NCBI RefSeq assembly: GCF_003334315.1
Contig: NZ_QOWR01000008.1
Source: Escherichia coli
Lineage (GTDB): Bacteria > Pseudomonadota > Gammaproteobacteria > Enterobacterales > Enterobacteriaceae
Reading direction: 5' to 3' (one strand)
DNA length: 64,000 bases
Shown here: piece after piece, positions 40,697-42,545 of the stretch
How positions within the stretch are numbered: the first letter of the stretch is position 1
Layout: each line of letters begins with the position of its first letter
Notes under the pieces: model-generated
Seen by the model: the letters and a program-made list of their open reading frames with translations, nothing else
Databases searched by the model: none
Told to the model about the DNA's origin: nothing
Position numbers and translations under genes: made by a program

Positions 40697-40847
40697 GACT
40701 CACTCATTTTTTGAACAAATAGATAATTTTTGCGCAACGGCAGTGAATACAGGAAAAATCGTTTTGAGCGATTTTATTTATCTTTGAGATCGGCTTTATT
40801 AATTCATTCAATCAATCAATATATTAGCACTGATTACAATTATACCT

Positions 40848-40938
40848 TTTTATTATTCTGTGTCATGATGCTTCCGTTATTAGCCTTTTATCGTCTTGTT
40901 TATATTTTTTGGGCCGGCATGATGCCGGCTTTTTTTTA
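40848..40938 (+). ncRNA. rseX: Probable RseX small RNA (approximate 5' end) ending at a strong intrinsic terminator
   Basis: No CDS; plus-strand hairpin gccggcat / atgccggc followed by TTTTTTTTAT at 40913-40939; location between yedR and yedS matches the known rseX locus. I could not recall the RseX sequence to verify. Confidence 0.4.
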
Positions 40939-41248
40939 TGCCTTCATTAATGTGCGCGTGATCACACCAGCCGTTTGGCGCAACAATCATTGATACCCCC
41001 TATGCTTCCGCTAAACTCATAACATATTGATATACATTTATAATTTTTATGAATATTTATATTTAGAATTCATAATCCTGAATTATATTAAATAGATTAG
41101 AAACATTTTGAAATCTTTTAAATACATTTGTTACATGTAATCCTTAAAATAAAATGAACTTCATAGAATAGTATCCAAATGTGCTTTTTTTTGGATAACG
41201 GCACTTATTGATATATTCATGAAGATTATAATCACAAGGGAATACATA

Positions 41249-42463
41249 ATGAAAAGAAAAGTTCTGGCAATGCTGGTTCCGGCGTTATTAGTTGCTGGCG
41301 CAGCAAATGCGGCTGAAATCTATAATAAAGATGGTAATAAACTGGATTTGTACGGAAAAGTAGCGGGCCTGCACTACTTCTCTGATGATGCCGGCAGCGA
41401 TGGCGACAAGTCATATGCCCGTATCGGTTTCAAAGGTGAAACTCAGATCGCTGACCAGTTCACTGGTTATGGTCAGTGGGAATACAACCTGCAAGCAAAT
41501 GGCACAGAAGGCGATGGAGATAACTCTGCTACCCGTCTGGCTTTCGCAGGTTTAGGTTTTGGTCAGAATGGTACTTTCGATTATGGTCGTAACTACGGTG
41601 TCGTATATGACATCGAAGCATGGACCGATATGCTGCCAGAATTTGGTGGCGATACCTATGCTGGTGCCGACAATTTCATGAACGGTCGTACCAACGGTGT
41701 TGCAACCTACCGTAACAATGGCTTCTTTGGTCAGGTTGATGGCTTGAACTTTGCGCTGCAATATCAGAGTAATAATGAAAGTGGCAGTGACAGTCTCTTT
41801 GGCCAAGAAGGATCTGGCAGCGGAGATGGCCGTAGCCTTGCTAAAGAAAATGGCGATGGTTTCGGTATGTCTACTTCCTACGACTTCGACTTCGGTTTAA
41901 GTCTGGGTGCTGCTTACTCTAATTCTGACCGTTCCAATAACCAAGCTGCTCGTGGGTATGGAGATGGCAATCATTTCTATGGTAATAGCTATGCAGGTGG
42001 TGGTACTGCAGAAGCGTGGACTGTTGGTGCTAAATACGATGCCAACAATGTATATTTAGCAGCAATGTATGCAGAGACTCGCAATATGACCGCTTATGGT
42101 AGCAGCGACTCTCATTCAGCCGATGGGAAACTTGGCGGCGGTGGTATCGCTAACAAAACTCAGAACTTTGAAGTTGTTGCTCAGTACCAATTTGATTTCG
42201 GCCTGCGTCCTTCAATTGCTTACCTCCAATCTAAAGGTAAGGATTTAGGTGGTCAAGAAATGTACAACAATGGTAATTATCATTATACCAATAAAGATCT
42301 GGTTAAATACGTTGAGGTTGGTGCAACCTATTACTTTAACAAAAACATGTCCACCTATGTTGATTACAAAATCAACCTGCTGGACAACGACGATGACTTC
42401 TACGCAAACAACGGCATCGCTACCGATGACATCGTTGCTGTGGGCTTAGTCTACCAGTTCTAA
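41249..42463 (+). CDS. yedS: OmpC/OmpF-family general porin (intact)
   Basis: Start set at [21 protein letters not shown] (signal peptide), [16 protein letters not shown]... porin N-terminus, C-terminal ...VGLVYQF; ORF track starts 10 codons upstream. Confidence 0.85.
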
Positions 42464-42505
42464 TCAGCCAACGCGCTGCGGCGTGTTACTGTAAAACTTA
42501 ACACT

Positions 42506-42545
42506 AGCCTGAGTTCGTCCCTCATCGAACTCAGGCTTTTTTATT
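42506..42545 (+). terminator. Rho-independent terminator of yedS
   Basis: 12-bp stem agcctgagttcg / cgaactcaggct followed by TTTTTTATT. Confidence 0.6.

Follow-up and report, generated by a model that had tools for sequence, protein, structure and literature searches.

The window, by which we mean the whole stretch of 64,000 nucleotides of Escherichia coli DNA that was analysed, is chromosomal and carries the gene order vsr-dcm-yedJ-drpB/yedR-rseX-yedS-hchA-hprS. Comparison with RefSeq relatives showed the same drpB-rseX-porin-hchA synteny as in K-12, and the porin gene, lying between rseX/drpB and hchA, occupies the position of the yedS locus orthologue. rseX and yedS are arranged in tandem on the same strand, with rseX approximately 310 bp upstream of the porin ATG (Table 1). 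An intact yedS next to rseX at this locus is already known and is usual for wild E. coli. RefSeq relatives have no annotated CDS between drpB and the porin gene, in agreement with a first-pass annotation of this DNA that had described the upstream region as free of coding sequence. An 87-aa open reading frame with a TTG start (40730-40993) was rejected as a gene; it overlaps RseX, is unannotated in RefSeq and is an artefact of the program that lists open reading frames.

Table 1. Features of the rseX-yedS locus, in window coordinates
Feature	Position	Strand	Basis or remark
CRP-like perfect palindrome TGTGATAAAAGTCACA	40654-40669		drpB-rseX spacer; pattern search
Putative rseX -10 hexamer TACAAT	40835-40840	+	7 nt 5' of the RseX 5' end; read from sequence
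RseX small RNA gene (Hfq-binding, trans-acting)	40847-40936	+	Rfam RF01401 and K-12 identity
Invariant RseX core CGTTATTAGCCTTTTATCGTC (RseX nt 29-49)	40875-40895	+	Likely target-pairing region
RseX intrinsic terminator GGGCCGGCATGATGCCGGC with T8 run	40911-40939	+	Terminator scan
CRP-like site TGTGATCACGCGCACA	40951-40966		Just 3' of the RseX terminator; pattern search
AT-rich tract, GC 0.21-0.33	40970-41248		Presumed H-NS nucleation/silencing region
Ultra-conserved yedS promoter/5'-UTR block, 169 bp	41080-41248	+	Cross-species identity
Candidate yedS promoter TTGTTA-16-TAAAAT	41128-41155	+	Consensus scan, 9/12; TSS would be near 41162
Shine-Dalgarno AAGGGA	41236-41241	+	7 nt before ATG; from sequence
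yedS porin CDS, intact, 404 aa	41249-42463 (including stop codon)	+	ORF with Pfam, NCBIfam and PDB matches
Signal peptide, 21 aa, cleavage ANA|AE	41249-41311	+	Aligns to the OmpC signal and cleavage site
Mature porin coding part, long-loop 383-aa mature allele	41312-42460	+	Identity drop relative to flanks
yedS intrinsic terminator	42506-42545	+	12-bp stem with 7 G-C pairs, then T-run

The small RNA gene matched the Rfam RseX family RF01401 over the full model (positions 1-94 of 94) at 97.7 bits (E = 2e-13; the gathering score is 50), and the match was recovered again in an Rfam scan of the whole window. All 90 of 90 nucleotides are identical to K-12 RseX, so that the earlier description of a non-coding element consistent with RseX is borne out. 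A plus-strand terminator had also been placed at 40913-40939; the terminator scan revealed a stem of 9 pairs, 6 of them G-C, with a loop of 3 (40911-40931), followed by eight T's. The same hairpin forms the 3' end in both the Rfam structure and the minimum-free-energy fold, giving RseX the Rho-independent hairpin with U-tail that is typical of the 3' end of Hfq-type small RNAs. Upstream of the gene, the hexamer TACAAT is kept in the cross-species alignment and may be the exact -10 element of rseX. For the K-12 gene, a passage of PMC8313858 citing Douchin 2006 gives a sigma70 promoter with 5' RACE support. rseX would yield an Hfq-dependent, trans-acting RNA of about 91 nt from its own sigma70 promoter, ending at its own intrinsic terminator.

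All 21 RseX copies collected, which span E. coli to Citrobacter amalonaticus, have an identical core. RseX lowers OmpA and OmpC, and does so in trans when borne on a plasmid (PMC7648144, PMC3617542). We performed a restricted pairing test, in which the conserved core was set against positions -30 to +15 of each mRNA with 1000 shuffles for comparison. Pairing of RseX nt 20-52 with the ompC start region reached a dG of -19.7 (12 of 1000 shuffles as good, z = -2.6), compared with -10.2 for the core and the yedS start region (609 of 1000 shuffles as good). By this prediction the core pairs with the start region of ompC and leaves that of yedS unpaired. Only this restricted test separated ompC from yedS; when RseX and MicF were scanned as whole RNAs or in 24-nt windows against the 5' regions of yedS and ompC, the duplex energies were no better than those of shuffles. 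Warner, in 2013, reportedly placed YedS under MicF/MarA control; our crude pairing scan did not reproduce the MicF part. When made, RseX would use its invariant core to base-pair with ompC and ompA mRNAs at their translation-initiation regions, lowering both proteins; this action is published for K-12, and the ompC pairing was reproduced here in silico.

The yedS reading frame runs from the ATG at 41249 to its stop codon with no internal stop and no frameshift. In a 99.5% identical strain RefSeq uses the start equivalent to 41249, and a start at 41219 (a 414-aa reading frame) was rejected, this upstream in-frame ATG having no Shine-Dalgarno sequence. Residues 1-14 of the signal peptide are invariant in 14 of 14 aligned proteins, and the 21-aa peptide is the same in ten other E. 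coli alleles apart from one residue (A21T) in E54; its DNA is 94-98% identical across species. The protein ends in VYQF, with a C-terminal Phe, and matches Pfam PF00267 (Porin_1) from position 1 to 337 of 337 (E = 2.4e-141). The first-pass annotation had called the porin full length, with a signal peptide and a C-terminal Phe, and all of this held: 404 residues, with no frameshift. Among solved structures the best match was OmpK37 (PDB 6v78, E = 2e-145), aligned end to end, as were OmpK36, OmpC, OmpF and PhoE. The homology of YedS to solved barrels is unambiguous. An AlphaFold2 model from a shallow alignment of 14 sequences had a mean pLDDT of 43, with a DSSP strand order that fits a 16-strand porin but is unreliable; because this model is poor, the barrel rests on sequence homology and not on an independent fold.

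We take the loop-3 constriction of OmpC to comprise the PEFGG motif, acidic residues D105 and E109 on L3, and basic residues K16, R37, R74 and R124 (OmpC numbering). Alignment with K-12 OmpC showed that PEFGG and all six residues are kept in YedS, as K16, R37, R75, D106, E110 and R126 of the mature protein. Alignment to OmpC/OmpF had been proposed earlier as a check of the barrel and the constriction loop; in the alignments made here the constriction loop is intact, and homology supports the barrel. By sequence, yedS is confirmed as a complete OmpC/OmpF-family porin gene. Its product would be exported by a Sec signal peptide and fold into a 16-stranded barrel constricted by loop 3, with the C-terminal Phe serving BAM recognition, and would probably act as a general-diffusion porin of the OmpC/OmpF type.

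GC content across 40600-41300 is 0.21-0.37, compared with about 0.52-0.59 in the flanking genes, consistent with the earlier remark that some 500 bp upstream of the porin are very AT-rich. Base composition together with K-12 data makes the tract that ends at the yedS start codon a presumed H-NS nucleation region. The pattern TGTGA-N6-KCACA had three matches in the window, against 0.18 expected. The palindrome TGTGATAAAAGTCACA is kept across Escherichia species and Citrobacter, and TGTGATCACGCGCACA is kept within Escherichia but not in Citrobacter. The K-12 equivalent of the latter, ggTGTGAtcaggcGCACAtta, which is assigned to yedS, is among sites footprinted in vitro (PMC12871828); a TGTGA-N6-TCACA-like motif suggests that the footprinted sites are CRP sites.

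Immediately before the yedS start codon lies a 169-bp block with 96-98% identity to the sequences of E. albertii, E. whittamii and Escherichia sp. and 83% identity to that of Citrobacter, whereas the flanking intergenic DNA reaches 65-74% in the Escherichia species and 38-48% in Citrobacter. RseX itself, at 88% and 74%, is below the block. Among E. coli genomes carrying both the block and the signal peptide, 4879 of 4880 have them at 95% identity or more. The block had no match in Rfam, permissive mode included, and the fold of the putative 5' UTR (41162-41290; z = -0.15) gave no sign of a structured leader. The TTGTTA-16-TAAAAT element is a candidate promoter from which yedS would be transcribed independently, within the conserved block. 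Global alignment of the yedS upstream region with the ompC promoter region scored 82; because shuffles scored 78 +/- 9, there is no detectable homology between the two. Phased half-sites at 41100-41134 resemble OmpR sites, a resemblance only.

The K-12 locus (pseudogene b1964-b1966) has the same position and neighbours as the locus in the window, an identical RseX, and 95-100% identity over the intergenic DNA and signal peptide. K-12 yedS had been described in the first-pass annotation as a disrupted pseudogene, and it is one: RefSeq flags the W3110 copy as 'frameshifted; internal stop', and by alignment codon 162 has changed from CAG to TAG and one base pair is missing near nt 669. Neither lesion occurs in the window copy. 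The two copies also belong to different allele classes, their mature coding parts being approximately 84% identical in DNA; the window protein, at 404 aa, has longer loops than K-12-type alleles of about 395-397 aa. K-12 is the exception, because yedS is intact in 12 of 14 E. coli genomes sampled across the similarity ranking. It is also intact in E. albertii, E. whittamii, Escherichia sp. and Citrobacter amalonaticus, always about 310 bp 3' of rseX. Inactivated copies were found in K-12 and Z1322HEC0006, and as IS1 insertions in 2018-11-3CC and FACU 2024; such repeated inactivation in some lineages indicates that yedS is dispensable in some niches.

Identity to other E. coli is 95-100% in the flanks and drops to 35-80% in the mature porin part. 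Of 5426 genomes, 257 carry the window allele at 99% identity or above, and hardly any copies fall at 90-99%. Other alleles are 59-88% identical, a range that holds for the amino acid identity between classes. Synonymous divergence between classes ranges from a dS of 0.5 to saturation. One class is common to E. coli, E. albertii and E. whittamii at 94-97% identity, and mosaic recombinants exist. Relative to OmpC and OmpK37, YedS has insertions at residues of approximately 178-200, 234-247, 284-300 and 334-347, all between predicted strands. From these comparisons, the mature part of yedS is a hypervariable allelic cassette that falls into discrete, apparently ancient allele classes, bounded upstream by the near-invariant block and signal peptide and downstream by the terminator. 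We found no description of the population structure of yedS alleles in the searchable literature.

The locus resembles micF-ompC and micC-ompN in that a porin gene lies beside a small RNA repressing a different major porin. Those pairs are divergent, however, whereas rseX and yedS are in tandem on one strand with a terminator between them. H-NS repression and the label 'quiescent' also apply to ompN and micC (PMC5745476, PMC3617542). Likewise silent in the laboratory are other OmpC-family porins, OmpS1 and OmpS2 of Salmonella and OmpK37 of Klebsiella; OmpS1 is repressed by H-NS/StpA, and LeuO lifts this repression (PMC4264507). The OmpK37 and OmpN genes lie at a different locus from yedS, and yedS has been likened to Salmonella ompS1 by name alone, as 'ompS1' (PMC2731931) and, for P0106, as 'outer membrane protein S1' in one database. 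In hns/stpA mutants of K-12, RNA-seq showed de-repression of RseX and the areas around it (PMC8313858), and yedS (ompS1) mRNA drops upon sigmaE induction along with that of other porins (PMC2731931). Given the base composition and the K-12 data, it is most likely that rseX and yedS, both in AT-rich DNA, are silenced by H-NS/StpA, which would keep them off under laboratory conditions in this strain as well. Because of this likely silencing, yedS can be viewed as a 'quiescent' spare porin like OmpN, OmpS1, OmpS2 and OmpK37.

Other accounts of the locus were also considered. RefSeq/PGAP gives the product the name 'porin OmpC', the protein scores 542.7 bits against the NCBIfam subfamily model NF007841 'porin OmpC', above its cutoff of 484, and relatives are labelled 'ompC' in RefSeq. 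That the gene is ompC itself can nonetheless be set aside with near certainty: the model describes a subfamily and not an equivalog, pairwise identity to K-12 OmpC is only 61%, true ompC lies at another locus in K-12, adjoining micF and rcsD, and the synteny from drpB and rseX to hchA is that of yedS. A second account follows from the first-pass annotation, which had made the terminator-ended element part of the yedS leader. RseX would then be the 5' part of a long leader, with its terminator gating yedS in cis as an attenuator or in a riboswitch-like manner. Although the short same-strand distance of 310 bp and a tandem order kept across species would fit such a gate, we consider it very improbable. 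The terminator is strong, with its run of eight T's, and the fold shows no evident anti-terminator. Conservation within the locus is lowest (38-72% identity) between the terminator and the 169-bp block, and a separate promoter-like site lies inside the block. RseX acts in trans from a plasmid (PMC7648144, PMC3617542), and RseX haplotypes are unlinked to porin classes: M6 and NCCP15734 carry the same class with RseX matching at 90 and 81 of 90 positions, respectively. The term 'leader' is imprecise, because rseX stands as an independent gene, equipped with a promoter and a strong terminator, and a conserved promoter-like block precedes yedS.

It could also be argued that yedS is intact merely through lag, as a cryptic, never-expressed relic heading for the pseudogene state it has reached in K-12. 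Pseudogenes or IS1 disruptions in several lineages are in keeping with this, as is native RseX-region expression that was undetectable in wild-type K-12 (PMC8313858). We consider such a relic unlikely, however, on several grounds. dN/dS in the strand regions is 0.04-0.19 when compared with alleles at very deep divergence (dS of 0.5 to above 1.3), which indicates that the protein is under purifying selection; yedS is intact in most of the sampled E. coli (12 of 14) and in four other species; and the promoter/5'-UTR block and signal peptide are better conserved than the neighbouring small RNA. A YedS-expressing clinical isolate has also been published, as cited in a passage of PMC4048246. There, citing Warner 2013, expressed and active YedS in a clinical isolate is linked to carbapenem susceptibility; like the window copy, that yedS is intact at the locus, and it is associated with carbapenem entry without OmpC and OmpF. 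Purifying selection and this published link support a functional yedS, in line with the first-pass annotation, which had suggested a silenced but functional alternative porin. De-repressed YedS could supply outer-membrane permeability, to carbapenems among others, when OmpC and OmpF are missing. Our preferred reading, to which we assign a probability of roughly 0.88, is that rseX and yedS are two adjacent, independent, previously described chromosomal genes, with yedS a spare porin that is kept off and has its own promoter.

The strain thus keeps an intact spare porin gene that K-12 has lost, beside a small RNA that lowers OmpC and OmpA. Given a predicted pairing of RseX with ompC that spares yedS, the two genes could together be a porin-swap module, with yedS a long-maintained, exchangeable surface-antigen cassette and not a decaying spare porin. 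We offer this only tentatively, as an idea that is rather less probable than its negation; if it is true, yedS would be under balancing or frequency-dependent selection, exerted for example by phages, colicins or antibody. In clinical strains deficient in OmpC/OmpF, carbapenems can depend on YedS for entry, which gives the gene relevance to antibiotic permeability, and resistance-genotype pipelines scoring porin loss can be led astray by the RefSeq name 'porin OmpC' on yedS. The surface part of yedS is radically variable between strains, whereas its control region has hardly changed from species to species, a pattern that may merit population-genetic study; if selection maintains it, phage, colicin or immune pressure would be acting on a gene that is usually dismissed as silent.

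The gene content of the window is that of an E. coli chromosome, and gene order around the feature is the same in K-12 W3110 and in STEC409, a 99.5% identical strain. A composition profile gave a GC fraction of 0.21-0.37 over 40600-41300, against 0.52-0.59 in the flanking genes, in agreement with the first-pass annotation, which had described the region upstream of the porin as AT-rich. The yedJ phosphohydrolase gene is intact in the window; at the 99.5% identical STEC409 locus (L002 1979-2674) it is annotated as a pseudogene with an internal stop. RefSeq places a 'hypothetical protein' at the position equivalent to the 122-aa ORF in two comparison loci, L008 and L009, and annotates none in K-12 or STEC409.

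Coordinates of features in the window
Feature	Coordinates	Strand	Remarks
cluster of three tRNAs	1013-1312	-	
DsrA sRNA	32396-32482	-	102.5 bits
vsr, dcm, yedJ, drpB (yedR)		-	ORFs before the gap
yedJ	39578-40300	-	240-aa ORF
AT-rich gap			650 bp, between drpB and porin ORF
CRP-like sites	40654-40669; 40951-40966		TGTGA-N6-TCACA/GCACA
(TCAA)3	40809-40820		rseX -35 zone
TACAAT hexamer	40835-40840		7 nt ahead of RseX RNA start
ATGACA-16-TATAAT	40866..40839	-	near-consensus sigma70 promoter, 11/12
RseX	40847-40936	+	Rfam RF01401
RseX nt 29-49	40875-40895	+	
RseX terminator stem	40911-40931	+	9 bp, then T8 run
conserved block	41080-41248		169 bp, directly before yedS ATG
TTGTTA-16-TAAAAT	41128-41155		promoter-like, inside conserved block
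yedS	41249-42463	+	porin ORF, after gap; hchA, hprS next
yedS mature part	41312-42460	+	1149 bp
122-aa ORF	42541-42909	-	inside 590-bp yedS-hchA spacer
tRNA	50691-50777	-	
tRNA	51769-51841	+	
2383-aa ORF	52083-59234	+	downstream of last tRNA; probably yeeJ adhesin, judged by position only

The porin ORF had been read as a full-length member of the OmpC/OmpF family with a signal peptide and a C-terminal Phe, and alignment bore this out. It begins at an ATG with a Shine-Dalgarno sequence, AAGGGA, 7 nt ahead and encodes 404 aa; the protein covers the entire Pfam Porin_1 model (E = 2.4e-141) and scores 542.7 against a cutoff of 484 for the NCBIfam 'porin OmpC' subfamily. End-to-end alignments were obtained with solved porins, the top match being Klebsiella OmpK37 (6v78, E = 2e-145), followed by OmpK36, OmpC, OmpF and PhoE. 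The alignment with K-12 OmpC (61% identity) shows that YedS keeps the C-terminal Phe, the loop-3 PEFGG motif, the cleavage site of the signal peptide and the constriction residues K16, R37, R74, D105, E109 and R124 (OmpC numbering). The extra length of YedS lies in four insertions between predicted strands, corresponding to external loops L4-L7. An AlphaFold model was poor (pLDDT 43) and was not relied on.

The K-12 homologue, described in the first-pass annotation as a disrupted pseudogene, is indeed annotated as 'frameshifted; internal stop'. In the alignment, codon 162 is changed from CAG to TAG in K-12 and one base pair is missing near nt 669; neither lesion occurs in the window. An intact yedS is not unusual: when 4918 matching E. 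coli genomes were ranked by similarity and 14 were taken at even spacing, the gene was intact in 12 and a pseudogene in two (K-12 and Z1322HEC0006). Intact alleles are plentiful in the protein database, occurring on hundreds to over 1000 contigs; the exact YedS protein of the window belongs to a 664-member cluster. IS1 was found inserted twice in the window-type allele, in strains 2018-11-3CC (L003 805-1580) and FACU 2024 (genome match H41). One copy, flanked by a 9-bp target duplication (CGGCACTTA), interrupts the yedS 5'UTR 53 bp upstream of the ATG and splits the conserved block; the other lies within the CDS.

The terminator-ended non-coding element upstream of the porin proved to be RseX, with the whole Rfam model covered at 97.7 bits (gathering score 50) and with the terminator noted earlier being that of RseX. 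The RNA is identical to that of K-12 (90/90). The K-12 RNA depends on Hfq and brings down OmpA and OmpC (PMC7648144, PMC3617542); it cannot be detected in the wild-type strain and is seen once H-NS (and StpA) is removed (PMC8313858). Nucleotides 29-49 were invariant in 21 copies from E. coli to Citrobacter amalonaticus. When 40700-40936 was compared with loci L006 and L008, RseX/promoter haplotypes diverged, with RNA identities of 81-90/90 and differences concentrated in the 5' tail and first hairpin loop (none in nt 29-49); the 100 bp upstream of RseX were 74-76% identical in RIVM_C037166 and NCCP15734. A 4-bp TCAA repeat is polymorphic in the rseX -35 zone, (TCAA)3 in the window versus (TCAA)2 in STEC409 and TTAATCAA in K-12, and an H-NS motif at -42 to -32 of rseX occupies the same zone (PMC8313858). 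On the opposite strand, the ATGACA-16-TATAAT site overlaps the rseX -10 and the RseX 5' end and is directed to drpB. It may serve as the drpB promoter, in which case the rseX and drpB promoters would be overlapping and divergent.

Identity in the conserved block is 96-98% among Escherichia species and 83% with Citrobacter. RseX is less conserved (88% and 74%) and neighbouring spacers far less; within the locus, conservation is lowest in the 140 bp after the rseX terminator. Of the 4880 genomes carrying block plus signal peptide (232 bp), 4879 showed 95% identity or more over this segment. The block carries 10-bp-phased GAAAC/GAAAT/AAATA/GTTAC repeats, which resemble OmpR half-sites; it gave no match in Rfam, and the fold of the putative yedS 5'UTR was unremarkable. 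Because rseX has a strong terminator, yedS its own conserved promoter-like block, and RseX haplotypes and porin classes assort independently, the first-pass annotation was right to place RseX upstream of yedS but imprecise in calling this DNA a 'leader'; rseX and yedS are two tandem transcription units, in line with the literature. The CRP-like pattern gave three strand-matches in the window versus 0.18 expected. Its downstream site matches one that PMC12871828 lists for yedS as footprinted in vitro; judging by the motif, the sites listed there would be CRP sites.

Compared with 13 other E. coli in sliding windows, the locus was 95-100% identical through the signal-peptide end, 35-80% over the mature coding part and 95-98% again right after the stop codon. 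Among 5426 complete E. coli genomes, only 257 carry the window's mature part at 99% identity or more, three at 95-99% and 65 at 90-95%; in the remainder it was 60-90% identical or gave no megablast match. Allele lengths span 352-404 aa. Identity to other classes is 59-88%, and the most distant alleles (59-61%) are as far apart as from OmpC. Values of dS between classes ran from 0.5 to saturated, and dN/dS was lower in strand regions (0.04-0.19) than in loops (0.2-0.36); yedS is under purifying selection. A 395-aa class shows 94-97% identity among E. coli, E. albertii, E. whittamii and another Escherichia, and P0004, a protein of metagenomic origin, is clearly mosaic, combining two classes. The mature part is a hypervariable allelic cassette. 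The diversity patterns are real in the data and may reflect balancing or diversifying selection.

The published picture of RseX and YedS is the best-supported reading. In it, RseX acts in trans as a repressor of ompC and ompA. In a duplex test counting hybridisation energy only, RseX nt 20-52 paired with K-12 ompC (-30 to +15) at -19.7 kcal/mol, a value equalled in 12 of 1000 dinucleotide shuffles, and with the adjacent yedS start region at -10.2 kcal/mol (609 of 1000); broader pairing scans were uninformative. YedS is an OmpC-family general-diffusion porin, with pore activity predicted for this strain, expressed from a putative promoter and normally silenced by H-NS/StpA on AT-rich DNA, as is presumably the case here. 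Comparable quiescent porins are OmpN (with MicC), OmpS1/OmpS2 (LeuO/H-NS) and OmpK37 (PMC5745476, PMC4264507). Gene identity, intactness, conservation and purifying selection are established here, and the original interpretation stands with minor corrections. Searchable literature mentioning yedS does not cover the allele-class and conserved-block patterns. rseX with an intact yedS is already a known feature; what the locus adds beyond it is modest, namely the pattern of an allelic cassette behind a conserved regulatory block.
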